DNA from: a virus
Lineage: Duplodnaviria; Caudoviricetes
Virus record (IMG/VR): IMGVR_UViG_3300033121_001789
Coordinates: 45,853 to 109,852 of that record
DNA: 64,000 nt
Reading direction: 5' to 3' (one strand)
Position numbers and translations under genes: made by a program. Shown in pieces: positions 12,093 through 48,600 of the stretch. The stretch's first letter is position 1; every line of letters starts with the position of its first letter. The notes beneath the pieces are model-generated. The model was not told the DNA's origin, ran no database searches, and worked only from the letters and a program-made list of their open reading frames with translations.

Positions 12093-12144
12093 TTGTTTAT
12101 ATATTAAAATTGATTATTTCAATAAAATATTTAATATATAAGAA

Positions 12145-15100
12145 ATGAAAAACCTCAGACTATTTGAAGAAATGGATACGGAAATAGGGGCAGAAAAGCC
12201 AAAACAAAAAAATTCCGAGAAAACAAAGACTCCAATTTTAGATGCTATTGGAAAAGATTTAACAAAATTAGCGGCTGAAGAAAAATTAGAGCCAGTACAA
12301 GGGAGAGAAGAAGAGATTCAAGAAGTACTTCTAATATTAGGTAGGAAAACAAAAAATAATCCAGTTATAATTGGTGAGCCAGGAGTTGGTAAAACTGCCA
12401 TAGTTGAGGGAATTGCTCAAATGATAGCTAGCAAAAAGTGTCCTCGTGCAATTCAAGGCAAAAGGATTATATACGTTGATATGGGATCTTTAATTGCTGG
12501 AGCTTCTAAACAAGGTGAATTTGAAATGCGTATTAAATCGCTGTTAGAGGAATTAGAAAAAAATAAAGATATACTATTATTTATAGATGAAATTCATATG
12601 ATGGTCAATCCAAATATGTCAATTGATGCTGCAAACATGTTTAAACCAGCTTTGGCTCGTGGTGATATGAGATTGATTGGAGCTACAACTCTAAATGAAT
12701 TTAGAAATTCAATTGAGAAAGATGGTGCACTTGACAGGAGATTTCAAAAAGTTATTATTGAAGAACCAACAAATGAACAAACATTAGCAATTTTAAATCG
12801 AATTAAAAGTAGATATGAAGACTATCATTTAGTTAAATATACTGATGACGCAATACTAGCATGTGTTAAATTAAGTGGGAAATACATAACTGATAGATTT
12901 TTTCCAGATAAGGCTATCGATTTAATGGATGAGGTTGGATCTAAAGCTAGATTATTAGCTCCGGACAATGAGCCTGAGGAAATAGTTAAGTTGGCAAAAA
13001 AAGTTGACGAATTAAAAGCTGAGATCATGGTAAAGACAAAGGCTCAGGATTACCAAAAAGCTGTAGAATTAAGACAAGTTGAAAAAAGACTATCTGAAGA
13101 ATTAGCAGATAAAAGAAGTAAATTAGATATACCAAAGGTCGAAGTAAATAAAAATGATGTTGCCAAAATAATATCTAAAAAAATAGGAGTACCAGCTGAG
13201 AAAATAACATCTGATGAAGGAGAAAAACTTCTAAAAATGGAAGATGATTTAAAATTACAAATAATAGGACAAGATGAAGCGGTTTCCAAAATATCTAAAT
13301 GCATTCGTAGAAGTCGAGCTGGACTAAGAGACCCAAAAAAACCAGCAGTATTTTTATTCTTAGGATCAACAGGGACAGGTAAATGTCATGGAAGAGGGAC
13401 AAAAATACTAATGTATGATGGATCTATTAAAAATGTTGAAGATATTAAAGTAGGAGATCAATTAATGGGTGACGATTCTAAACCTAGAAATGTTCTTTCA
13501 TTAGCCACAGGCAAAGACAATATTTACAAGATAAAATATAAATCTGGTAGCTTTACTTGCAATTCTGAACATATTTTATCACTAAAAGAAACTGGAAAAT
13601 ATAACATAATCAATATACCATTAAATGAATATTTGAAAAAAAATAAAACATTTAAACACACACACAAATTATGGAGCACTAAAGTTGAATTTGAAGAATC
13701 AAAAATAACAATTGATCCTTATATGATCGGACTTTGGCTAGGAGATGGTGATAAAAATAGAGTTTCTATAACAACTGCTGATTCTGAGATAGTGAACTAT
13801 TTGGAAAATACAGCTAAAAATTATAACCTAAAAGTTTATAAAAACAATTTGAAAAATAACAAGAGTGATGTATATTGTCTAACTGGAGAAAACTGGACAA
13901 ACAATAAAAATGAATTACTAAATGAATTTAGGAATTATGGACTAATAGACAAAAATAAAAATTATACCAAATTCATACCCGATATTTATCTACATAATTC
14001 AATAGAAAATAGGAAAAAATTGTTATCTGGACTAATTGATAGTGATGGATATATTTCCAACAATTGTTATCTAATAACCACAAAATATAGTGAACTAGCT
14101 GATCAAATAGTTTATCTATGCAAATCTCTTGGATATATGGCAACAAAGTCAAAAAAAGATGTTAAGAAATATCCAAAAAATACTTATTATAATATAAACA
14201 TATCTGGAGATTTTGATTTAAATTCTTATATTCTTTTAGATAGGAAAAAACACAAATCAAGAAATCAAAAAAAGAATGTTAATTTATTCTCCTTTGATGT
14301 AGAACATATCGGATATGATGACTACTTTGGATTTGAATTAGATGGCAATCATCTATATTTGTTGCAAGATTTTGTTGTAACACATAATACACATACCGTA
14401 AAAACATTAGCTAAATATTTATTTGGATCTGAAGATGCGATGATAAGATTTGATATGAGTGAGTATGGAGAGAAACATAATGTTTCGAGATTAATTGGCT
14501 CCCCTCCAGGATATGTAGGATATGGTGAAGGAGGACAACTAACCGAGAAAGTTAGAAGAAAGCCATATTGTATAATATTATTAGATGAGTTAGAAAAAGC
14601 TCACCCAGAAGTATTAAATGTATTACTACAAGTTTTTGATGATGGACAATTAACTGATGGACAAGGAAGAAAAGTTAATTTCAAAAATACTATTATAATA
14701 ATGACATCCAATATAGGAAGTTCGGCAGTCAAAGATATGAGAATGCCAATGGGGTTCAATGCATCGAAAATTTCTAGAAACGATAATATGAAAGATCTAA
14801 TCAAAAAAGAATTAAAGAAAAAATTAGCTCCAGAATTTATTAATAGAATCGATGATATAATTATATTCTCACAATTACCTAAAGAAAGTATATACAAAAT
14901 TATTGATATTGAAATAAATAAATTATCAAAAAGAGTTGAAGAAATGGGTTATCATATCAGTATAACTGACAATGTTAGAAAATTAATAATGGATAATGGT
15001 TATGATGAGGAAATGGGGGCTAGACCGCTTAAAAGAGCTATTGAAACACTAATAGAAGATCCTATATCTGAAGAAATTTTAAGAGGTGCTATAAAAGATG

Positions 15101-15231
15101 CCATAAATGTTGACTACGATCCACAAACTAAAAATTTAAGTATTAATGGGAATGTTATTAAAGAATCTTTAAAATTTATAAAGAAATTCAGAATGATAAT
15201 TGAGAAAAAATTTCAGAAATTTAAATACTAA
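12145..15231 (+). CDS. ClpC/ClpE-like Hsp100 AAA+ ATPase lacking the N-domain, intein-containing
   Basis: NBD1 GEPGVGKT/LFIDEIH/ALDRRFQ, UVR-like M-domain, NBD2 GSTGTGK[intein]T, SRLIGSPPGYVGY, LDELEK, PMGF loop, GARPL. Confidence 0.93.
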   Translation: MKNLRLFEEMDTEIGAEKPKQKNSEKTKTPILDAIGKDLTKLAAEEKLEPVQGREEEIQEVLLILGRKTKNNPVIIGEPGVGKTAIVEGIAQMIASKKCPRAIQGKRIIYVDMGSLIAGASKQGEFEMRIKSLLEELEKNKDILLFIDEIHMMVNPNMSIDAANMFKPALARGDMRLIGATTLNEFRNSIEKDGALDRRFQKVIIEEPTNEQTLAILNRIKSRYEDYHLVKYTDDAILACVKLSGKYITDRFFPDKAIDLMDEVGSKARLLAPDNEPEEIVKLAKKVDELKAEIMVKTKAQDYQKAVELRQVEKRLSEELADKRSKLDIPKVEVNKNDVAKIISKKIGVPAEKITSDEGEKLLKMEDDLKLQIIGQDEAVSKISKCIRRSRAGLRDPKKPAVFLFLGSTGTGKCHGRGTKILMYDGSIKNVEDIKVGDQLMGDDSKPRNVLSLATGKDNIYKIKYKSGSFTCNSEHILSLKETGKYNIINIPLNEYLKKNKTFKHTHKLWSTKVEFEESKITIDPYMIGLWLGDGDKNRVSITTADSEIVNYLENTAKNYNLKVYKNNLKNNKSDVYCLTGENWTNNKNELLNEFRNYGLIDKNKNYTKFIPDIYLHNSIENRKKLLSGLIDSDGYISNNCYLITTKYSELADQIVYLCKSLGYMATKSKKDVKKYPKNTYYNINISGDFDLNSYILLDRKKHKSRNQKKNVNLFSFDVEHIGYDDYFGFELDGNHLYLLQDFVVTHNTHTVKTLAKYLFGSEDAMIRFDMSEYGEKHNVSRLIGSPPGYVGYGEGGQLTEKVRRKPYCIILLDELEKAHPEVLNVLLQVFDDGQLTDGQGRKVNFKNTIIIMTSNIGSSAVKDMRMPMGFNASKISRNDNMKDLIKKELKKKLAPEFINRIDDIIIFSQLPKESIYKIIDIEINKLSKRVEEMGYHISITDNVRKLIMDNGYDEEMGARPLKRAIETLIEDPISEEILRGAIKDAINVDYDPQTKNLSINGNVIKESLKFIKKFRMIIEKKFQKFKY
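13384..14388 (+). mobile_element. intein (335 aa) with LAGLIDADG homing endonuclease inserted in Walker A of NBD2
   Basis: GK|CHGRGTKILMYDG ... IGLWLGDG ... LSGLIDSDG ... VVTHN|T. Confidence 0.95.
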
Positions 15232-26283: not shown

Positions 26284-27231
26284 TTATATTTTATTAAAAT
26301 TTTCATCATAATTCATTATCAGTAATTCAGTTCCTTTTAATTGTTCTCCTTTTAGTTGGTGATTATTTCCACCCATCGCCGATCTGCGCACAACATCTCT
26401 TTGAATCCATCTATATTTCTCTCTTGGTAGTAATTCATCCAAAAGAGGAAAGTAATAATATGATAATGACCATTTTGATTTGGTTGTTTTAATTAATTCT
26501 ATTAATCTTCTATGTGATGCCGGTCCAAAAACACCATCAGCATCAGCACCATACCAAAATAATCTTTTAGAATCATCATCTTTTTCACCATTAAATCTAG
26601 CATATGGCGGGTCCAAATAAATATATGTACTTTCAGAATCATATTTTTTTATTAATTCCTCGAAGTCTGTACTATACCAATGTGTGATAGAATTTAATTT
26701 ATCAGTATAAGTATTTTTCTTTAATTTATTAATTAATACACTTAATTTAAGTTTATCTTGTTTTTTAATATACCCGGAGAATCCGCCACCCCTAGGATAA
26801 ACTGAGGAAAAACTCGAAGTTATTAAAAAAGCATATATAGCTGCCCTTTCAAAGTCTCCTAATTCGAAATCCTTATTATCAAGAAAATCATTTTTTGTAT
26901 ATTCCCTATAAACAGATTTATAAAAATCCCATTTCAAATTTACATCTGTTTCATTAGTATATAAAATTCCCCCAGTAGACAATAATTTATTAATTGAATC
27001 TAATAATTTATCTGGTGTAGCGGCGCACTTATATAAGTTTGCTTGATGTTTATTAATATCATTAAAAATTACATTTTCAAAAACCATATCAGGATCATCC
27101 ATAAATGTTGCAAAACTACCTGAAAATGGCTCAATATATGTTTTGATATTATTCTTTGGGATGTTTGGATTTATAAGATGTTTGACAAAGTCATTAGAAG
27201 ATTTAGATCCGAAGTAAGATATTAAAGACAT
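26284..27231 (-). CDS. Dam-like (D12 class) DNA adenine methyltransferase
   Basis: SYFGSKS, YIEPFSGS, FNDIN, YLDPPY, ELLIMNY. Confidence 0.9.
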   Translation of the reverse strand: MSLISYFGSKSSNDFVKHLINPNIPKNNIKTYIEPFSGSFATFMDDPDMVFENVIFNDINKHQANLYKCAATPDKLLDSINKLLSTGGILYTNETDVNLKWDFYKSVYREYTKNDFLDNKDFELGDFERAAIYAFLITSSFSSVYPRGGGFSGYIKKQDKLKLSVLINKLKKNTYTDKLNSITHWYSTDFEELIKKYDSESTYIYLDPPYARFNGEKDDDSKRLFWYGADADGVFGPASHRRLIELIKTTKSKWSLSYYYFPLLDELLPREKYRWIQRDVVRRSAMGGNNHQLKGEQLKGTELLIMNYDENFNKI

Positions 27232-27314
27232 AATTAAAGTTTAGAAATTATAGATTAAAAAATAAATATGTTTAGGTAATCAATGGGAAGACAAATTGAT
27301 TTAATATATAAAAT

Positions 27315-27974
27315 ATGATAATTTATAAAATAACAAATTTAATTAATAACAAAGTATATATAGGACAAACAACCGAAAGTCTTCAAAAAAGATGGAAAAG
27401 ACATACATCCGAATACCATGAAAAAAATATGTATATATCAAGAACAATATCTAAATATGGCGAAAAAAATTTTATTATAGAAAAGATATGTGAATGTTAT
27501 TCTTTACAAGAATTAAATGAAAAAGAAATTTTTTATATAAATGAATATGATTCTCTATCACCGAATGGGTACAATCTTGTTGTAGGTGGTAATAATAGTA
27601 AAATGAGCGATGAAACAAAATTAAAAATATCCAATAGCCACAAAAAAAGATATCTAGATGGTAAAGTTATCTCTGAAGAAACTAGGAAAAAATTGTCAGA
27701 ATCACATAAAGGATGGATTCCATCAGAAGAAACTCGTCAAAAATGGAGAGATGCCTTCTCTGGAAAAAAACCATCCGAGAAAACAAGAATCGGTGCCATA
27801 TCACATCATCAAAAAACATATACCTTTGAAAGTCCAGATGGTGAAATAATTACTTTTACAAATATGAAAGATTTTTGTAAAAAAAATAATTTATGCAATT
27901 CTAAATTATGTTTGGTCGCATCTGGTAAAAGAAACCACCATAAAGGATGGAAATTACACAAATCACATTTGTAA
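27315..27974 (+). mobile_element. GIY-YIG homing endonuclease with NUMOD3 repeats
   Basis: MIIYKITNLINNKVYIGQT, SEETRKKLSESHKG. Confidence 0.9.
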
Positions 27975-28436
27975 TTTTTTAATATCATTACGAATCCTCA
28001 TTAGAAGATTACCTAAGTTGTTTTCTCCTTTATTATTACACTTATTACAAGTGCAAACTCCCCACCAGGTATCGTGCCAATAATTTCCCTCAATTAACAT
28101 CTCATCTCCTGTCTGCAATAATAGTTCTTGTAGGTTTTTAATCTTGAATTTTTCTCTTAATCCAAATTCCATAACCTTTAGACGAATTGAGTCCCAATCT
28201 GGTCTTAATTTAAAACCTCTACCCATTCTTTTAACCTGACCCGGAGTTAGAACTTTCGATACTAATTGTCGAGTATCTTCAAGTGTATAAAATTGACCAT
28301 CAATTATTTGTCCTTCTTTTATTTTCATAGCAACATAATAATGTTCCACAGATGGATAAACAATACCCTGATAAGTTATCTCACAAGGATAAAAATTTGA
28401 TAAAAAAAACCATCGACCTTTAAATGAATCTATCAT
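27963..28436 (-). CDS. NADAR family protein (YbiA-like)
   Basis: FLSNFY, SVEHYY, DWD, KF...LLLQTG...LIEGN...WG...GENNLG.LLM.IR. Confidence 0.9.
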   Translation of the reverse strand: MIDSFKGRWFFLSNFYPCEITYQGIVYPSVEHYYVAMKIKEGQIIDGQFYTLEDTRQLVSKVLTPGQVKRMGRGFKLRPDWDSIRLKVMEFGLREKFKIKNLQELLLQTGDEMLIEGNYWHDTWWGVCTCNKCNNKGENNLGNLLMRIRNDIKKLQM

Positions 28437-28482
28437 AATAATTTTATATCTTTAATTAATAATAATGTTTAATATATAATTA

Positions 28483-29643
28483 ATGACAAAAGAAGAATTC
28501 AAAAATATATTCATAGAATTAACAAACTACACAATTCCATTTGGAAAAGAAAAATTATTAGAAAAACATCTACCAAAGGGATTTAAGAAAGATAATATTG
28601 GAAATTACTACTATGAAATAGGAAATTCTGAAACATTATTTACATCACATTTAGATACATTTTCAAAAAAATACGAAAAGGTTAATCATGTAATTGACGA
28701 AGATGATCCATATATTATATCCACAGACGGTAAAACTATCTTAGGTGGGGATAATAAATTAGGATGTACTATTTTGTTTGGCATGATTAAAAATTCTATA
28801 CCAGGAACTTATTACTTTTTTCTTGGAGAAGAGCCAATTTTAAGTGGTGGATTATGGGGTTCAAGAAATGCATTAGAAAGTAATTTTGAATATTTCAAAA
28901 AATTTAAAAGATGTATCGCATTCGATAGAAAGCAGTATGGATCAATTGTTGTTCGTCAAATGGGTCGTATGTGTTGTTCTAAAGAATTCGCTAGTGAAAT
29001 TGCCAAACAATTAAAAATTGGTGGAATTAATTGGGACGAATCTGTTGGATTTGGATATTATACAGATACCGCCGTTTTCATGGATGTAATACCAGAATGT
29101 ACAAACATATCAGCAGGTGGATTTAATGAACATTATAAGAGTGAATGGGTCGATCTAAATTATACATATAATGTTTATAAGTCAGCATTAAAAATTAAAT
29201 GGGAGGAACTACCGACTAATAGAAAGTTAGAAGTTAGATTTTCAGATGAGGAAAAAGAAACAATAAATAAAGACTTCAAGAAATTTCAACAAATAAAGAT
29301 ATATAAAGAAATAGAATCTATGACAGAATTAGTAGATCTATCCAAAACGAGAGACATATCTAAAAATGGAGAAAGATATTTAACATTCTCAAAATGGCTT
29401 GAAGATTATGACTTGGATATAACTTTGTCAAATAGTAAAATTATTATAAATGGTAAAGAATTATCAATGAATCAGTTAAAAAGATTAATTCTTACAGAAT
29501 TCAGGGAAGATATACTCGATCAAATAAAGTATTATATAGAAATGAAAGAAAAAAAGGAATTAGATAAGATACTTTATATCTTTGGATTCAAAACAATACC
29601 AGAAATAATTAAATTTCTTAAAACAAAAAAAAGAGGAAAATAA
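28483..29643 (+). CDS. M28/M20-clan zinc peptidase (paralog 2)
   Basis: SHLDT, GGDNKLG, GEEP, AFDRK, NEH. Confidence 0.8.
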   Translation: MTKEEFKNIFIELTNYTIPFGKEKLLEKHLPKGFKKDNIGNYYYEIGNSETLFTSHLDTFSKKYEKVNHVIDEDDPYIISTDGKTILGGDNKLGCTILFGMIKNSIPGTYYFFLGEEPILSGGLWGSRNALESNFEYFKKFKRCIAFDRKQYGSIVVRQMGRMCCSKEFASEIAKQLKIGGINWDESVGFGYYTDTAVFMDVIPECTNISAGGFNEHYKSEWVDLNYTYNVYKSALKIKWEELPTNRKLEVRFSDEEKETINKDFKKFQQIKIYKEIESMTELVDLSKTRDISKNGERYLTFSKWLEDYDLDITLSNSKIIINGKELSMNQLKRLILTEFREDILDQIKYYIEMKEKKELDKILYIFGFKTIPEIIKFLKTKKRGK

Positions 29644-29656
29644 TTTCCTCTTTTTT
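29626..29656. terminator. bidirectional terminator between peptidase and tmRNA
   Basis: AAAAAAGAGGAAA-ATAA-TTTCCTCTTTTTT. Confidence 0.7.
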
Positions 29657-29659
29657 GAT

Positions 29660-29712
29660 AAACCGTTCAGATATTTACCCTGTTTAAAACTGTTCAGATA
29701 TTTACCCTGTCT
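29660..29712. repeat. 27-bp-period tandem duplication (core GTTCAGATATTTACCCTGT x2)
   Basis: Identical 19-mers at 29665-29683 and 29692-29710. Confidence 0.85.
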
Positions 29713-29721
29713 ATCGTTTGG

Positions 29722-30089
29722 TGGTGGAGGCGGAGGGTTCGAATCCTCGTCTTCCTCAGTTAGATACAACCAATCATTTACAAGCTTAGTTAATTTTTCT
29801 AAACTAACAAAATAATAAATTTTTTCGACTCAAAAAATATTTATAAAAAACTATCACGATTTTTATCTGTTGGATTCAGAGGTAAATTTCTTGAAATATC
29901 AATTAAGCCATTTCAAACTCATTCACCATGAGTAAGTTGTTTTGTAGGGCAGCTACTAAATCTTCACTGGTTCCCACTTCGTTTGTTTTGCCGATTACGA
30001 CATTCGCCATTTAATTTTTAATCGGTTATATGACAATCCGATACTTGCTCAATTACACCTAGGACCGCGAATCAATACATTACGCCCCC
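29722..30089 (-). ncRNA. ssrA: tmRNA, 368 nt; tag (A)GKTNEVGTSEDLVAALQNNLLMVNEFEMA*
   Basis: 5' GGGGGCG pairs with 3' CGCCUCC-ACCA with G3:U. T-arm GAGG-AUUCGAAC-CCUC. pk1-like pseudoknot (UCGG/CCGA; UUGUCAU/AUGGCGA). Resume context UAAUC-GGC 11 nt later. Tag ORF 29992-29903. Confidence 0.92.
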
Positions 30090-30140
30090 ATATTTCTACA
30101 AAGATACAATTATATATTAAATTATCAAAATGTTTTTTTT

Positions 30141-31940
30141 CTAAAATGGAGCAGAATCATCAAATTTATCCACAAGTGAGTATCTATCATCATCCTCATC
30201 GTCGTCATCAGAATAATCTTCCTCAGCATCTTCCCAAGTAAATGAAAATTTCAATATTGGGAAACCATCCTTACTTTCATACAACTCCACCTCAACATTA
30301 TACTTTGAAAGTAATTCTTCTTTAACACGACCAACAACATCAAATGCTTTTAAAAGTGTTGAAATTTTCTCTCGGTGTTTTAAAAATGTATAAACATTCA
30401 AATCATATTCTTCAGATGTTACATTAACATCTAATCCATTAGAAACAAACATTTGTTCAACCCAATAACATAATTCCTCAATATCATCTTTAAATCCACC
30501 TGATTCCTCCAAAGAATGTAATGATTCATATGTAGTATCATCATCAACACCATAATAGTCATGATATTTTTTAAAAACAGGATCAACTGTTAATTCAATC
30601 TTAATTATACTATCATCAAATGTGAGTGTCGGATCCATACTATGTATATTAAACATCTCACTTAAATTTAAAAAATCATCCTGTACTAATTCTACATCGG
30701 ATTCGTCCATATCTATTTTAAGAAATTCTATTCCATAAGATGACATCAATTTTATATCTAAATTAAAAGCACATGACCGAAAATCATTTAAAAAATCCTT
30801 AAAATAATGTAAAAATAAATCACTAAATCCAATCTTTCTCTTAACTGTTAAATTCTCCCAATCAACCCCAACAGAAGCTTTTGCGAGCCTTTCAAGGAAA
30901 GAAATATTCTGAGATTCTCTATTTGTATGTTCATCAAAATATCCAACAGATATATTTGTACACTCTGGTATTTGGTCAATAAAAGATGCAGAGTCGGTAT
31001 AAATTCCAGTATCGTCCAAATTAAATTTCATTCCATTTTTAGAATATTCAGCCGCTAATGAATGTGCAAATTCATCTGAACAACATTCTGCAAACATTTG
31101 TGATGTAATAATTGAATAATAATTTCTCCTATCAAATGATACGCATTTTTTCAATCCTTTAAGATGCTCAAATGATTCAAATTCTTTTGAGACTTTACCA
31201 GATCCAATTCCACCTCTTTCTTCACCAATAAAGAAATAATAAACACCAGGTACATTATGAGCAATCATGTACAATAGTACAGTAACTCCTGATTTATCAT
31301 CGGCTCCTAAGATAGTTGTACCATCGCTAACAATATGCTCTTGTCCATCTATCATTCTGCTATATAAAACCACATTTGTTTGCTTCCTATCTGCGGTATC
31401 AAGGTGACAAGTAAACATAGTTGTTGATTTACCTACTATTTTATAATAGTTTCCAAATTTATCTTTTGTTAGACCTATCTGTGATATCAAAGGATAAACA
31501 TCATCTTCTTGTGGATGTGGATATGTTTTAGTCACCAATGATATGAAAGTATCTCGAACATTTTTAGGATTAAACTTAAATTCTGGAACCACAATTAACG
31601 TTGAATTACCAAAAGACTTGATTGGTTTTTTTTGTTTTTTTGCCTTTAATGTATTATACTTGATTGTAAATTTTTTGATCTCATCTTCAGTAAATTGATC
31701 AGGAAAAAATTTACGAATCATATATCCAACTTTTATCGGATTATACTTCCCACCTATTTTAGCATTAAATGACCAATCATGTCTCGACATATCTAATTGC
31801 TCAATTCCCAAAGTGTCTGCGGCAATTGAAATATCATTCTCAACTCTCATAAGTTTATCTGATATCTTATCCTCTATATCATCAAAAATATCATACAAAT
31901 CATCAGTATATTTTATGGGCATTGGTCTATTCTTAATCAT
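30141..31940 (-). CDS. M28/M20-clan zinc peptidase (paralog 3) with N- and C-terminal extensions
   Basis: CHLDT, GADDKSG, GEERG, SFDRR, DEH; acidic tail. Confidence 0.85.
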   Translation of the reverse strand: MIKNRPMPIKYTDDLYDIFDDIEDKISDKLMRVENDISIAADTLGIEQLDMSRHDWSFNAKIGGKYNPIKVGYMIRKFFPDQFTEDEIKKFTIKYNTLKAKKQKKPIKSFGNSTLIVVPEFKFNPKNVRDTFISLVTKTYPHPQEDDVYPLISQIGLTKDKFGNYYKIVGKSTTMFTCHLDTADRKQTNVVLYSRMIDGQEHIVSDGTTILGADDKSGVTVLLYMIAHNVPGVYYFFIGEERGGIGSGKVSKEFESFEHLKGLKKCVSFDRRNYYSIITSQMFAECCSDEFAHSLAAEYSKNGMKFNLDDTGIYTDSASFIDQIPECTNISVGYFDEHTNRESQNISFLERLAKASVGVDWENLTVKRKIGFSDLFLHYFKDFLNDFRSCAFNLDIKLMSSYGIEFLKIDMDESDVELVQDDFLNLSEMFNIHSMDPTLTFDDSIIKIELTVDPVFKKYHDYYGVDDDTTYESLHSLEESGGFKDDIEELCYWVEQMFVSNGLDVNVTSEEYDLNVYTFLKHREKISTLLKAFDVVGRVKEELLSKYNVEVELYESKDGFPILKFSFTWEDAEEDYSDDDDEDDDRYSLVDKFDDSAPF

Positions 31941-31950
31941 TTCTTATATA

Positions 31951-32337
31951 TTAAATATTAATATTAATTTCTTCAGCGTTCTTATAATCAACTTTTACCT
32001 GTCCAATATTCATTTCTGGTAATTTCTTAACGAATTTTGACTTACAACAAATAACTATACAATTTCCAGTAACTTTTGAATTTTTAGCAACAATTTCAGC
32101 TGCTTTATGTTTCACCTCTTTTGTTATCAATCTATCTTTTTGTCTAATAATAGCATGACACCCTGGTTTTCCCTTAACATGGAACCATAAATCCTCAGGA
32201 TCTGCCATAATTGTTGTTAAATAATCATTTGATTTCCCATCCCTACCAAAAATTAGTGTATAATCATCTATAATTATCGTTCTTAAATTTGGAAATTTAT
32301 CCTTGGACTCGTTAAAAGAAATAAAATTCTTTATCAT
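31951..32337 (-). CDS. stand-alone NFACT-R (DUF814) RNA-binding domain protein
   Basis: GRDGKSNDYLT...DLWFHVKGKPGCHAII...AAEIVAKNSK...KFVKK...GQV. Confidence 0.85.
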   Translation of the reverse strand: MIKNFISFNESKDKFPNLRTIIIDDYTLIFGRDGKSNDYLTTIMADPEDLWFHVKGKPGCHAIIRQKDRLITKEVKHKAAEIVAKNSKVTGNCIVICCKSKFVKKLPEMNIGQVKVDYKNAEEININI

Positions 32338-32361
32338 ATAAATTATATATTAATTTTTAGC

Positions 32362-33138: not shown

Positions 33139-34884
33139 TTAGTTTAAGTATTGTCTTGTGTCAGTAACAACAATTGTCATATACTGTTTTTGTGGGAAGA
33201 ATCCTACATCAGCAAGAGCGTATCTTGAACGTAACAACATTCTTGGTGCGAAAGTTGCTTCGGAAATTACACTAATAGACTGTGCCATTAAGTAAGGTAC
33301 GAAGATAAGACCTGGTTGGTCTGGGTTATTCTTTCTACCCAATACGATTCTGTTGTCGCTATATCTCATATATGGATCAACGTAGATTTGGATATCACCT
33401 ATTGTTCCAACTGGATATAATTGTCCTTGACCGTTAACTTTAGATTTAACCGGGTTAATTGTATAACCAGATATATCCATAAGAGCTGCCGCAAGACCTC
33501 CATTTGTAATAGCGAATTGAGCTGGACCAACTCTACCTTCAGTAGCTATATAGTTAGAAGCGTGAGCCATCTTAGTTATAAGCTTTCTCTGAACAGCGTG
33601 AGTTGTTTCACCACCGATACCACCACCGTATGTAACATAGTTTGTGTCTAAGTCAAAGATAGTAGATGCAGTTGTACCAGGAACAGTTGTACCTAAACTT
33701 GCGTTTAAAGGTGCATTTTGTCTGTTAGATTCACCAAGTGCAAATATTTTTTGAACGATTTGTTTAGAAATTGTTTGAGACAATTCATTTACAAGGATAG
33801 ATTCCATCTTTTGAACGATATCCATACCTGTATTAGCTTTAATGTCTTCAATTTCTGTTCTTCTTAAAGCAGTTGATACTTCAATTGTACCCACAGCTAT
33901 TGATTTAGAAGAAATTTTTGGACCAATAACACCTGAATAAGTATTATCATCTGTTTGTCTATCCATTGGATAGTCTCCTGATGAAAGAGATGCTGCCCAG
34001 TTTGCAGAGAAACCTGGAAGTTGATCTTCAAGTGCAGATACTAATTCAATTGTAGCAGAAGCAGTTACACCAACAGTACCAATATAGTTGATTTGAGCAA
34101 CCATAGATGCAGTAGCATTGAATGTATTATACTCTGGAGCAAAATTAAATGGACTTGTGTTAGCACCACCATAAACATTTTGAGAGTTTGCTTGTCTGTA
34201 AGCTCTGAACATTGGAGCTCCATCAATTCTTGAGAATCCTAAGAATTCAAGAACGTTTGTTTTTGTACTTGGTTCAGTTGAAACAAGTGCTGTAGACGAG
34301 CTGATATTAGCAACGAATACTCTTGCTCCTTGGATACCACCTGTTGTTAGTGTTCCAGATGCTGCAGTAACCTCAGTAGTTAAAGCTGCTTTCATAGCTG
34401 CTAATGCACCAGCACCAGCTGCAGTGATTTTAAATACTTGTGGACGACCAGTTGTTCCACCATTTGTTAAATCATCATATTGAAAATCAATATAAAGAAG
34501 GTCGATTTTTGGACCTGGAGTTGGTTTTACAGCAACTAAATCAAGACCAATTGTTTGAGCTGCAATTTTCATCGCAACTGGCAAAAGATTTTGACCTAAA
34601 TCACCAGAACCAAGAACACCAGCAGCACCACCGTATTGAGTTGGAAGTGAACCTCCACCAAAACCAGCACCACCACCAAGGTAACCAGGCAAACCAGCTA
34701 CTGAAGGTGCTACTACTGAGCCCATACCAGCTGTTGTTGCGTTAGCGTAAGCGTTCTCATTGATTGAGTGAAATTCAGCATATTCTGCTAACCATTCAAC
34801 TCTGTCAGAAGATACACCCATGTTTTCCAATACAGGACCCCATTTCTTAACCGCTTTTTGTTTGTCTATTCTAATGTGTGACAT
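33139..34884 (-). CDS. gp23: major capsid protein (T4 gp23-like)
   Basis: KKWGPVLE, IGLDLVAVKP, ILVNELSQTI, VGTI..IQIYVDPY, GLIFVPY, TFAPRMLLRSRYAL; strong codon bias. Confidence 0.95.
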   Translation of the reverse strand: MSHIRIDKQKAVKKWGPVLENMGVSSDRVEWLAEYAEFHSINENAYANATTAGMGSVVAPSVAGLPGYLGGGAGFGGGSLPTQYGGAAGVLGSGDLGQNLLPVAMKIAAQTIGLDLVAVKPTPGPKIDLLYIDFQYDDLTNGGTTGRPQVFKITAAGAGALAAMKAALTTEVTAASGTLTTGGIQGARVFVANISSSTALVSTEPSTKTNVLEFLGFSRIDGAPMFRAYRQANSQNVYGGANTSPFNFAPEYNTFNATASMVAQINYIGTVGVTASATIELVSALEDQLPGFSANWAASLSSGDYPMDRQTDDNTYSGVIGPKISSKSIAVGTIEVSTALRRTEIEDIKANTGMDIVQKMESILVNELSQTISKQIVQKIFALGESNRQNAPLNASLGTTVPGTTASTIFDLDTNYVTYGGGIGGETTHAVQRKLITKMAHASNYIATEGRVGPAQFAITNGGLAAALMDISGYTINPVKSKVNGQGQLYPVGTIGDIQIYVDPYMRYSDNRIVLGRKNNPDQPGLIFVPYLMAQSISVISEATFAPRMLLRSRYALADVGFFPQKQYMTIVVTDTRQYLN

Positions 34885-45623: not shown

Positions 45624-48600
45624 GGTCTAACTGTTGACAATACAATATCGTTATATCTTTTAGAAGTTAGATTAGTATAAGATTCCAATTCTCGTATATC
45701 TAATATTCCACGAATTTCATAGTTTTTCTTATCCCTATAAATAGCACCATATCCATTTTGTGATGTTACCTCAATAACTAAATATGGATCTATATTAGAA
45801 TCAATAGTAAAATTGAAGGAATATAAATTATCAATATACCTACGCTCAACTATTTTTTGAATTGGAACCAAATCAATTTCCTTCCACTCCGTTATATTTA
45901 TCCAATTATTGCTATCAACAAAAGGAGTAATTACTGAATATGTAATCGAATCAAGTCCGGAATATATGTAAAAATTACTATCATACTTTACCACATCAGA
46001 AACATTATATAATGTTCCATAATTCCAATTGGAAATATCTTCATACTTTCGAGGATTATTTGTTTGATTATTATCTATAACTGATTCATAAACCTTATCA
46101 TAATAAATTACTCTATCACCTATCATGTAGTTTTTAAATGGATACCACTCTCGATATATCTCATATGTTCTAATATTTACATCATACATATCTGGCAATG
46201 ATTGTGTTGATGATATATAAAAATCTAAAACGCAGTTATAAACTGTCGATCCATTATTAACAGGCATAAGATATAATTCATTCAGCTTAAATGAAACAGG
46301 TGTAAATTCCTCTGTCGTTTTTATGATCTTCACATCACGAACAATATGACCAATGGATGTTGAGTGTACAAAATCCGCTCTTCCTGTTATATCCAATATC
46401 TTATGTGTTATTGGTATAATATTTTTCTGCAACCAATACTTCAAACCCTGCAATTTTATCTGAACCTCTTCTAAAGAATATGTCAATAGATTATTACCCT
46501 CTCTATCCGTAATTCTATATGTTAGATTAAATAAATTGGTGTCCTCATAATTATCATTTGGGAATACATGTTTAATAAAATCATTATCTGTCCAACCCTC
46601 GACAGTATTATCAAATATATCAGGTATCTCCACTTTAAATAGTTTTCGATAGTTCGAAGATATATAATTTATATTTCTATAATACTCATTTAATTCTAGG
46701 TCATTATACCCAAAATAATTAATAGCGTTAATGATTGATTTATAACTACCAACATAAGGATAAATTAAATTTTTCATCATCATCATTTCCTTTCGTTTAC
46801 GATTCAGATATGTCCAATCAATCCCCTCTTCTTTAATATCATACTCTTTGAAGATATAAACATCATCAGATGATATCAACTTACCGACATTTCCTAATTC
46901 CGTTTCAAATCTTATATCTTCTATCTCAGTTTGTCCATATAAATTAAATCTTCCCAATTCCCTATCCCAAATCTTAAATCGAACAGATAAATATGTTGTG
47001 CTTCCAGATTTTGGATAATCAGATATAATTGTAGTTTCTGAATCAAATCTATCAACAGATTTAAAAAAGTCCACTTTTATTGATTTAAAAAACACCTCTC
47101 TTATTCTAACTAAATATCCATTATTATTAGAGATATACTGTTTTCTATTGTTGGACTCATCTTTTATAAAAATAGCCAAGTGTTGTCCAGGTCTAAATCC
47201 TCTATAATTACCCAAATCATCTGTTATGAAATTGCTACTTGACATTAAACCTAATTTAATAAGTCCATATCTATCATTACCATCTAAAACAGTCTCAAAT
47301 GAAATTTCATTTGTAGAATCTAATAAAGTATTAATTGAGAAGTCAATGTCTTCTTTTAAATAAAGTTGAAGAATACTTCTTATTCCTCCCTCCATTTGTG
47401 AATTAAACCCAATAAATGTTTCTATTGGTTCTGGTACGGATGATGTGTCCTCATCATCATCAAAATAATTTAATCTGTGTCCAATAACCGGGAAAATTGT
47501 TTGTTGATATTCTGGATCATTTACTTTTTCCAAATTTCGATTGGCGTTTCTATTTAGATAAACAGTTGTTAATGGCTTTGGGCCGGTATAAGCCAAAACA
47601 CCATCAGTTGGTAATAAATCTCCTGAAAAATCATATAAGAAAAATTCAGGAACGTTATCTGAAAACCATTTCCAATAAAGAGATGCTTCTGGATATCCTA
47701 CATAATTATATCTCGGTCTTCTAATGAAGTCTTTGGTATGCAACCAAAGATAGTTCCTGTGCGTATAATCAGGTGACAAACTACCATAATTATTCTCCTC
47801 CATATATGAGTATGTAGGTGTTATATTATAAAAAGAGAAATCTACAATCGGAACAACTTCAATAATAGTATTTGTATTTGGTTGTATAGCCCATATGCTA
47901 TTTCTATCAGGGTTATAAATCATTTGTGTTGTTGGATTACCAACAGGTAGTACAATTATTTCAGTAATATTGCCAGTATATCCATCAAATACCCATATTC
48001 CTGGTAAAGTTGGATCTTGATTTGATAGATAAGTATCACCATCATACATATTTATTTGAAGATATCCCCATATACTTGAAAATGAGTGATTAAATAAATA
48101 GGTATCTGTTGAATCATCCAATAGACTAAATTGTGGAGAATCCGTTGATATATTAATACCAGACTGCAAATTATTAAAAATAATATTATTAAATGAAGAT
48201 GATGATATTAATATTGTTGAAACGATACCATATTGAATTTTATTTAGATTTGTTCCCCAAACATAAATTGATTGTGTTATATTATCATATACCATTATAT
48301 CTGATGTCAATCCGGTTATTACATATATGACACTAATTGAAAGACTCATACCATCAATTCTCAATACAGAAGATCCATCTCGACAACTAACATACATATC
48401 ACCATCATACTCATTAAAAATTAAATTATAGGAACCAGAATAAGGTATTGTCGAAATGGTAGATATTAATACTCCAAGATTAAATATCTTAACATTTTGA
48501 TCTGTTGATACATAAATATATCCAGTATTTTTATCATATGCTAAGCTATAGGCGTCTTCGGCTATTGAAATTGAGTTAACAACAATATTAGAAAATGGGT

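Follow-up and report, generated by a model that had tools for sequence, protein, structure and literature searches.

Transfer-messenger RNAs (tmRNAs; ssrA) are known from bacteriophages such as phage G and the Bxz1-type mycobacteriophages (PMC4131195), and surveys based on ARAGORN have reported them in 2.3% of isolate phage genomes (PMC9004378) and, as 'tmRNAs and SmpB', in huge phages (PMC7162821). These phage RNAs have been proposed to sustain translation by the hijacked ribosomes (PMC7162821, PMC9004378). In the current tmRNA database, tags of 10 residues are the commonest (PMC11915505); the phage G tag has 13 (PMC12484599), and that of Mycoplasma pneumoniae, which is thought to be read by Lon, has 27 (PMC8403727). 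Here we analyse a 64,000-nucleotide stretch of viral DNA (hereafter the window; positions 45,853 to 109,852 of IMG/VR record IMGVR_UViG_3300033121_001789) carrying an element that, by its architecture and covariation, is a one-piece tmRNA with a 29-codon tag frame. The source record is a 109,852-bp viral contig; CheckV puts its completeness at about 20%, so that the whole genome should measure around half a megabase. Our preferred reading, to which we assign a probability of about 0.8, is that a huge phage encodes this element as a functional tmRNA, one of a divergent phage-borne family, whose selected tag probably serves as a specific address.

Compared with the standard SsrA RNA (RF00023), this family shares the G3:U pair, A73, CCA, a T-arm abutting the acceptor stem and a long P2 helix in place of the anticodon arm, together with a first pseudoknot (PK1) ahead of the resume codon, U-A at positions -5/-4, a short, hairpin-folded tag frame ending in TAA and, in the complete relatives, SmpB. 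It differs in falling below the Rfam cut-off (8.6 bits in the main clade), in its odd T-loop and missing D-loop GG, in its location within a phage head-gene module, and in a tag that has 29 residues here, lacks an LAA or AA end and reaches its conservation peak in the middle. The tags of Mycoplasma and Mesoplasma are likewise very long (27 versus 29 residues here) and are adapted to a protease that is not ClpXP and that recognizes more than their final three residues; their RNAs, however, have no detectable relationship to the phage family, and Lon was not found in the phage genomes. Mycoplasmas are not known to have ClpXP, whereas the presumed Bacteroidota hosts of the present phages do. The reported phage tmRNAs (phage G, Bxz1-type, Melnitz-type marine and huge phages) resemble this family in sitting in translation-gene-rich genomes, sometimes with a phage SmpB, and the end of the phage G tag, ...NNELQVA, is similar to ...VNELEVA here; all of them were found by ARAGORN, which misses the present family at default settings. 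The RNA of mycobacteriophage DS6A, which consists of a tRNA-like domain (TLD) only, is also a phage-borne tmRNA derivative of unusual make-up, but it has no tag frame and is probably an inhibitor, whereas the RNA described here keeps a selected 29-codon frame. A literature search, which was not exhaustive, found no paper describing this family, its tag or its synteny. Phage tmRNAs themselves being known, the apparent novelty lies in a divergent family of them that the standard detectors do not see and whose long tag is conserved in its middle.

Detection and structure of the RNA

The gene and its structural parts are listed below; both strands of the acceptor stem, the discriminator and both CCA triplets were read from the sequence, and the T-arm was placed by the Rfam model alignment.

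29722..30089, minus strand: one-piece tmRNA (ssrA) gene, 368 nt including the encoded CCA, identified by RF00023 match, family homology and covariation
30083..30089, minus strand: 5′ strand of the acceptor stem, GGGGGCG, pairing with CGCCTCC and containing G3 of the G3:U alanine identity pair
29726-29732, minus strand: 3′ strand of the acceptor stem, CGCCTCC
29725, minus strand: discriminator A
29722-29724 and 29719-29721, minus strand: encoded CCA and second CCA
29733..29748, minus strand: T-arm, GAGG / ATTCGAAC / CCTC
30004..30042, minus strand: PK1, a hairpin ATCGG...CCGAT whose loop UUGUCAU pairs with downstream AUGGCGA
29993..29997, minus strand: frame-setting sequence UAAUC, equivalent to U85-A86-G87-U88-C89 of Escherichia coli

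The sequence-only reading of this DNA had claimed a full tmRNA architecture (acceptor G3:U, CCA plus a second CCA, PK1 and resume site, all read from the letters), and that claim stands. In permissive E-value mode, applied to region 29400-30400, RF00023 aligns end to end (model positions 1-374) to 29722..30089 on the minus strand, with E = 4.9e-15. ARAGORN relaxed to 80% calls identical ends and an identical tag; since this setting yields mostly spurious calls or wrong resume points on family loci, the call is weak support and was not used as evidence.

Relatives were collected from IMG/VR by two pattern scans followed by an nhmmer profile, giving 28 matches and 25 distinct sequences, counts that take in the window itself and incomplete copies. 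Among phage records in GenBank, similar DNA is present only in LR756502.1 (642 kb) and LR745206.1 (635 kb), which are 68-69% identical to the window across the tmRNA. Both records (loci L258 and L259, respectively) carry no annotation at all, and their tmRNA, SmpB, ClpP and ClpC genes are therefore unrecorded. Default ARAGORN detects 0/29 family loci and the Rfam gathering threshold 0/18; RF00023 in E-value mode found nothing at the tmRNA loci of the two GenBank relatives, and the LR756502 family member scores only 8.6 bits against this model. No other tmRNA was found in LR756502.1 or LR745206.1, where the remaining RF00023 matches are tRNA-sized and score at most 25.7 bits.

A pattern for the tag core also matched four contigs of metagenome-assembled genomes (MAGs; species-representative genomes) binned as Izimaplasma, Flavobacteriaceae, Peribacteria and Muiribacterium. 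Only two of the four contain the tmRNA; these two contigs are short, of inconsistent taxonomy and probably mis-binned phage DNA, and host assignment from these inconsistent bins was dropped. With regard to the host, Al-Shayeb et al. (2020) placed all of the largest genomes in the Mahaphage clade and predicted those above 634 kb on Bacteroidetes (PMC7162821). Because Mahaphages of 634-642 kb are predicted on Bacteroidetes and Bacteroidota-type promoter boxes are conserved upstream of the tmRNA (see below), the phage is probably a Mahaphage-like huge phage infecting Bacteroidota.

A structural alignment of 19 family sequences (alignment A3), to which the second stem of PK1 was added by hand before pairs were counted, yields a consensus fold with an acceptor stem, a long P2 closing the molecule, PK1, two tag hairpins, a 3′ hairpin and a T-arm abutting the acceptor. 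Standard pairs occupy 96.3% of its cells, compared with 84.4% in shuffles and 36-50% when partners are slid by 1-3 columns, and compensatory changes occur at 38/65 pairs versus 19.8 in shuffles; the observed values were reached in 0/500 shuffles. Within this fold, G3:U is kept in 19/19 aligned members, with compensatory changes at acceptor pairs 5 and 6, and the T-stem shows them at 4/4 pairs. P2 (helices 2-4) has compensatory changes at 14 of its 24 pairs, and 95-100% of its cells are paired. PK1 helices 5 and 6 (columns 50-57/66-73 and 58-61/86-89) also covary, with 96% and 92% of cells paired and compensatory changes at 3/4 pairs of the second stem. The T-loop of the window, ATTCGAAC, is of TTCGAA type and one base short of the Rfam consensus arrangement, and CCA is encoded in only 4/19 aligned members, the others having CAA, CTA or CTG.

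These data bear on the idea that the locus is a decaying, non-functional relic of a captured bacterial ssrA, left for example at an old integration site. Scores below threshold in both standard detectors, the deletion in the T-loop and the odd CCACCA end would all fit decay, yet in about 25 diverged copies compensatory changes have preserved every helix, and G3:U, the frame-setting UA, the open frame and the fixed genomic position are likewise retained. No integrase context was found around the tmRNA, which sits among head genes. We regard a relic as highly improbable.

The tag frame and the selection acting on it

The tag frame lies directly downstream of the frame-setting sequence.

29906..29992, minus strand: tag frame of 29 codons, GKTNEVGTSEDLVAALQNNLLMVNEFEMA, with resume codon GGC at 29990-29992, supported by translation and conservation
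29903..29905, minus strand: tag stop codon TAA, identical and aligned throughout the family

The U-A at -5/-4 is invariant in the structural alignment; the bases before the frame read (G/T)TAAA(C/T) in the family and TAATC in the window. In E. coli, A86, located 4 nt before the resume codon, is a key determinant of frame choice (PMC2481249). From the aligned resume codon, the frame is open in 23/23 members with a complete tag region, and its length is 29 codons in 19 members, 30 in three (through an in-frame AAC insertion) and 27 in one, with 27 also in one MAG copy; the only insertions and deletions in the tag are +3 (three loci) or -6. This frame alone stays open across the family, the other two closing after a few codons in most members. 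The alternative resume frame that the sequence-only reading had allowed for is closed after 2-6 codons in all other members but one (20 codons in locus L065; 11 in the window), and it was rejected because it is not kept open.

It might also be supposed that a conventional small gene begins at an in-frame ATG (30008-30010), which in the window lies 6 codons upstream and would give a product of 35 residues, MANVVIGKTNE...FEMA. This ATG belongs to the 3′ strand of PK1 and is absent from the relatives, no ribosome-binding context is seen upstream of it (by eye only), and the RNA architecture around it is that of a tmRNA. The 35-codon open reading frame was rejected as not conserved, and the chance that it is a gene is practically negligible.

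Selection on the peptide was assessed from steps between codons seen in one alignment column. Summed entropy by codon position is 14.0, 14.3 and 21.8, third positions thus being the most variable. The 87 single-nucleotide codon steps in the tag frame include 41 that are synonymous, 35 that are conservative and 11 that are radical or lead to a stop; radical changes and stops would be expected at 35%, and their depletion is significant (p = 2e-6). In control frames +1 and +2, 55-60% of the steps are radical or stop, with no depletion. It follows that the tag frame is very probably translated and that its amino-acid sequence is under selection. A phage tmRNA with an unusually long tag, as first read from this one sequence, is accordingly borne out and strengthened by the comparison among related phages, in which a tag of 27-30 residues proves to be a conserved and selected feature of the whole family.

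Because the frame is under selection, the relic and the small gene are contradicted, and so is a further possibility, namely that the RNA serves chiefly to sequester host SmpB or to obstruct trans-translation in the host, a decoy role suggested for the DS6A TLD-only RNA, with tagging incidental. TLD-only phage RNAs do exist and a similar molecule inhibits tmRNA (PMC4131195, PMC11915505), and the tRNA-like domain of the present family is aberrant in both T-loop and D-loop. A decoy would need no reading frame, yet selection acts on the frame as such, on its length and stop codon and on the encoded amino-acid sequence; moreover, both complete relatives encode their own SmpB (167-177 bits, with an intact basic C-terminal tail). 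A role mainly as a decoy appears improbable.

The family consensus of the tag is G-(N/K)-(V/T)-x-E-V-(G/A)-(T/S)-x-E-D-L-V-(A/F)-A-L-Q-N-N-(L/M)-(L/I)-x-V-x-(E/D)-(L/P)-x-x-(A/V). Its middle, E-D-L-V-A-A-L-Q-N-N-(L/M)-(L/I), is nearly invariant, whereas all that is retained at the terminus is an acidic residue at -5 and A or V in the last position, the penultimate position varying among V, T, M, E, F, L and I. Accordingly, the tags end in EVA, ATV, AVA, VEA, ETA, VVA, AFA, QFA or VIA, with FEMA in the window, and never in LAA or AA; the internal LVAA and the missing terminal LAA recorded in the sequence-only reading are thus both confirmed. Its description of the tag as an amphipathic helix, on the other hand, was rejected, since its hydrophobic moment does not exceed that of shuffled tags (a fraction of 0.23-0.72 of the shuffles equals or surpasses it).

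A working tmRNA would also be compatible with a tag that is an ordinary host degron, whose non-polar A/V terminus would be recognized by ClpXP, ClpAP, FtsH or Tsp, the extra length being a mere spacer. All tags end in A or V, usually after hydrophobic or small residues, and what ssrA-type degrons have in common is a non-polar C-terminus. The short phage G tag, ...ELQVA, also resembles ...ELEVA and ...ELQFA in the family (PMC12484599). Against a host degron, the most constrained residues are internal, the penultimate position includes E and T, and there is no AA end. ClpX reportedly needs a terminal LAA (Flynn et al., 2001). In addition, 27-30 codons are held across about 30% nucleotide divergence with amino-acid selection along the tag, where a spacer would drift. 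We therefore consider an ordinary host degron rather unlikely. A specific address is favored instead because the peptide is under purifying selection and is conserved in its middle rather than at an LAA terminus; more weakly, the tag can be proposed to be, most likely, a degron read through internal and C-terminal determinants together, by analogy with the Mycoplasma tag and Lon.

Several observations weigh against a functional tmRNA with a selected tag. The RF00023 score in the window, 41.7 bits, lies below the gathering score of 47, and neither ARAGORN at default settings nor Rfam at its gathering threshold reports anything in the window; the single-sequence fold energy of 29722..30089 is unremarkable and uninformative (z = -1.4). 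The main clade has a non-canonical T-arm, with a 6-bp T-stem and a GGCAGTA loop in place of TTCGAA, and the usual D-loop GG is absent from the tRNA-like domain; the shortened or non-canonical T-loop and the missing GG make acceptance by host SmpB, EF-Tu and modification enzymes uncertain. Pseudoknots PK2-PK4 were not resolved in the consensus fold of the alignment, which has one 3′ hairpin only (columns 319-335). At the level of the tag, third positions of GAA GAT TTA GTA and of CAA AAC are invariant, indicating that mid-tag conservation is partly at the RNA level, and a covarying helix joins codons 8-9 to codons 14-15, a pairing that accounts for the A14-to-F change. Finally, SmpB was not found on the 20%-complete contig of the window or on five other family contigs, one of which is 89% complete by CheckV.

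Part of this evidence has an explanation in the RNA itself. The detectors fail because the tRNA-like domain is aberrant in T-loop, CCA and D-loop, and the window alone reaches 41.7 bits because its subclade keeps TTCGAA; the sub-threshold score is a failure of the detection threshold and not of the architecture. The sequence-only reading, which had looked to ARAGORN or RF00023 for confirmation, thus finds it in a full-length match at E = 4.9e-15, but neither in the gathering cut-off nor in default ARAGORN. Beyond the 3′ hairpin, a CTG...CAG hairpin with a TCAC loop potentially complementary to downstream GTGA looks PK2-like by eye, and it was not counted; PK2-4 are dispensable in E. coli (PMC2481249). 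The five partial family contigs contain ClpP in 3/5, a ClpC-type ATPase in 0/5 and SmpB in 0/5, and the absence of SmpB and ClpC from such fragments says little because both lie 100-200 kb from the tmRNA in the complete genomes.

Genomic neighborhood, promoter-like and terminator signals, and candidate Clp partners

The tmRNA is embedded among genes for head proteins and candidate proteostasis factors.

33139..34884, minus strand: Gp23-like major capsid protein (PF07068, E = 6e-29) heading the conserved module, 65-73% identical in family loci
31951..32337, minus strand: stand-alone NFACT-R (RqcH C-terminal type) RNA-binding protein of 128 aa (PF05670, E = 1.3e-11; EfbA/RqcH model matches)
30141..31940, minus strand: PepT-like (clan MH) peptidase of 599 aa, the upstream neighbor (PHROG 4191 'peptidase', E = 9e-62; weak PepT matches)
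28483..29643, plus strand: second PepT-like peptidase, paralogue of the 599-aa gene (PHROG 4191, E = 7.5e-55; same regions matched in relatives)
27963..28436, minus strand: NADAR-domain protein (PF08719, E = 9e-25), directly downstream of the tmRNA in most relatives

At least 13 family loci have, on a single strand, the order prohead protease, major capsid protein, NFACT-R, peptidase, tmRNA and NADAR; in the window phage, the peptidase paralogue is inserted on the opposite strand between the tmRNA and NADAR. PepT-like peptidases consequently flank the tmRNA of the window, whereas in the relatives there is only one such gene, located in every case directly upstream of the tmRNA, and neither of the two peptidases is recognized by Pfam. 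Just beyond the NADAR gene lie a GIY-YIG/NUMOD3 homing-endonuclease-like gene (27315-27974, plus strand) and a Dam-type N6-adenine methyltransferase gene (26284-27231, minus strand); together with the inserted peptidase paralogue, the endonuclease could be the trace of a local insertion by which the tmRNA became separated from NADAR. The NFACT-R gene (RqcH/NEMF C-terminal type), two genes upstream of the tmRNA, is conserved in at least 13 related phages, a suggestive juxtaposition of a ribosome-quality-control RNA-binding domain with a tRNA-Ala-like rescue RNA. In a separate locus outside the window (L004, G000:C1, about 3.7-4.8 kb), the phage tRNA cluster comprises Glu-CTC, Glu-TTC twice, Tyr-GTA and Met-CAT, together with one ARAGORN call with a 4-base 'gttt' anticodon.

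Signals for transcription lie on both sides of the tmRNA.

30099..30129, minus strand: Bacteroidota-type promoter-like pair, TTTG (-33) and TATCTTTG (-7), pattern TTTG-N19-TATCTTTG
30111..30120, minus strand: phage-specific promoter-like motif TTAATATATA, identified by its enrichment in the window
29665..29709, minus strand: two tandem exact copies of a 27-nt unit with core CAGGGTAAATATCTGAAC, in the 3′ trailer between the tmRNA end and the terminator
29627..29656, minus strand: intrinsic terminator hairpin with a 13-bp stem followed by a T run (terminator scan)

The pattern TTTG-N19-TATCTTTG fits the Bacteroidota -33/-7 promoter consensus. The pair occurs with equal spacing and place upstream of 19/26 family copies listed, and across the window it is not enriched (3 sites versus 2.7 expected); given this lack of enrichment, it is solely by its conserved position that the host-type pair is supported. 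TTAATATATA, by comparison, has 19 sites in the window versus 2.65 expected, a number reached in 0/100 shuffles, and a related motif, ATATTATATATA, is found upstream of nearly all family members. Of the host-type and phage-type promoter motifs that had been proposed upstream of the gene, the phage motif is therefore strongly enriched, and the host-type pair is conserved in position but not enriched in the window. Elsewhere, TTAATATATA typically ends about 4-6 nt before an ATG, for example at 12131-12140, 27301-27310 and 28469-28478 on the plus strand and at 31945-31954 and 32344-32353 on the minus strand, which suggests a phage promoter for nearly leaderless mRNAs or a translation-initiation motif. 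The 27-nt CAGGGTAAATATCTGAAC repeat has no further copy in the window and was not found in the trailers of the relatives.

Besides SmpB, each complete relative encodes 2-3 ClpP paralogues and one two-ring Clp ATPase, and the window contains a gene of the latter type.

12145..15231, plus strand: ClpC-like two-ring AAA+ unfoldase with an intein (Pfam AAA, AAA_lid_9, AAA_2, ClpB_D2-small, Hint, LAGLIDADG)

The window ATPase aligns to residues 156-793 of Bacillus subtilis ClpC (E = 2.5e-194) and is taken to have no N-domain because the alignment starts at residue 156; it has MGF in place of the VGF ClpP-docking loop of ClpC. The intein (Hint plus LAGLIDADG, residues about 414-747) is located in the D2 Walker-A motif, between GSTGTGK and T, and the ClpC-like orthologues of the 642-kb and 635-kb relatives, with 709-719 residues, are without it. 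The distance between the ClpC and tmRNA genes is 15 kb in the window and about 200 kb in both complete genomes, so that their linkage is not conserved.

Proposed mechanism and meaning for phage biology

In the mechanism that we propose, the gene would be transcribed from the host-type TTTG/TAnnTTTG promoter, the phage TTAATATATA-type motif or both, with transcription ending at the terminator at 29627-29656. By analogy with tmRNA biology, the 5′ leader and the 3′ trailer of about 95 nt would be trimmed, and alanyl-tRNA synthetase would charge the RNA with alanine by means of G3:U and the discriminator A73. Together with SmpB, which is phage-encoded in the complete relatives and presumably also supplied by the host, the charged RNA would enter ribosomes stalled on broken or non-stop mRNAs. 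Translation would then resume at GGC (29990-29992), four bases after the invariant A, adding alanine and 29 residues before stopping at TAA. The fixed place of the gene in the head-gene module suggests that it would serve the period of heaviest structural-protein synthesis.

As to the fate of the tagged products, candidate receptors of the tag are the phage ClpC without N-domain, acting with ClpP, or a host AAA+ protease. The suggestion, made from the sequence at the outset, that the tag could escape host ClpXP or be routed to the phage ClpC-like ATPase remains plausible. In its favor are the lack of an LAA or AA end, the drifting penultimate residue, the N-domain-less ClpC with its MGF loop, and the presence of ClpC, ClpP and SmpB in the relatives; counted as against it or neutral are the unconserved proximity of ClpC, the Mycoplasma precedent for long tags and the failure of the amphipathic helix. 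A narrower version, in which the tag is a phage-private address whose EDLVAALQNN(L/M)(L/I) core is read by the phage ClpC with ClpP, by NFACT-R or by the PepT-like peptidase, is a tentative possibility that we hold to be somewhat doubtful. If it were true, proteins rescued during capsid synthesis would be handled by phage-owned quality control, insulated from host ClpXP and SspB; with phage SmpB, this would amount to a self-contained viral system of trans-translation and proteolysis built around a tRNA-like domain that escapes detection.

The family also has consequences for how phage genomes are read. Surveys that rely on default ARAGORN or the Rfam gathering threshold would underestimate the number of phage tmRNAs, and the smpB genes of phages would then seem to lack a cognate RNA; a covariance model built from the present structural alignment would remedy this. 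The tag reverses the usual pattern of ssrA conservation, with a near-invariant middle, a drifting terminus and a length of about 29 residues held by selection, and offers a natural test case for trans-translation tags read outside the ClpX-LAA route. For the phages themselves, the fixed place of the tmRNA near the genes for the capsid protein, a peptidase and an NFACT-R protein of RqcH type suggests a viral module for ribosome rescue and proteostasis.

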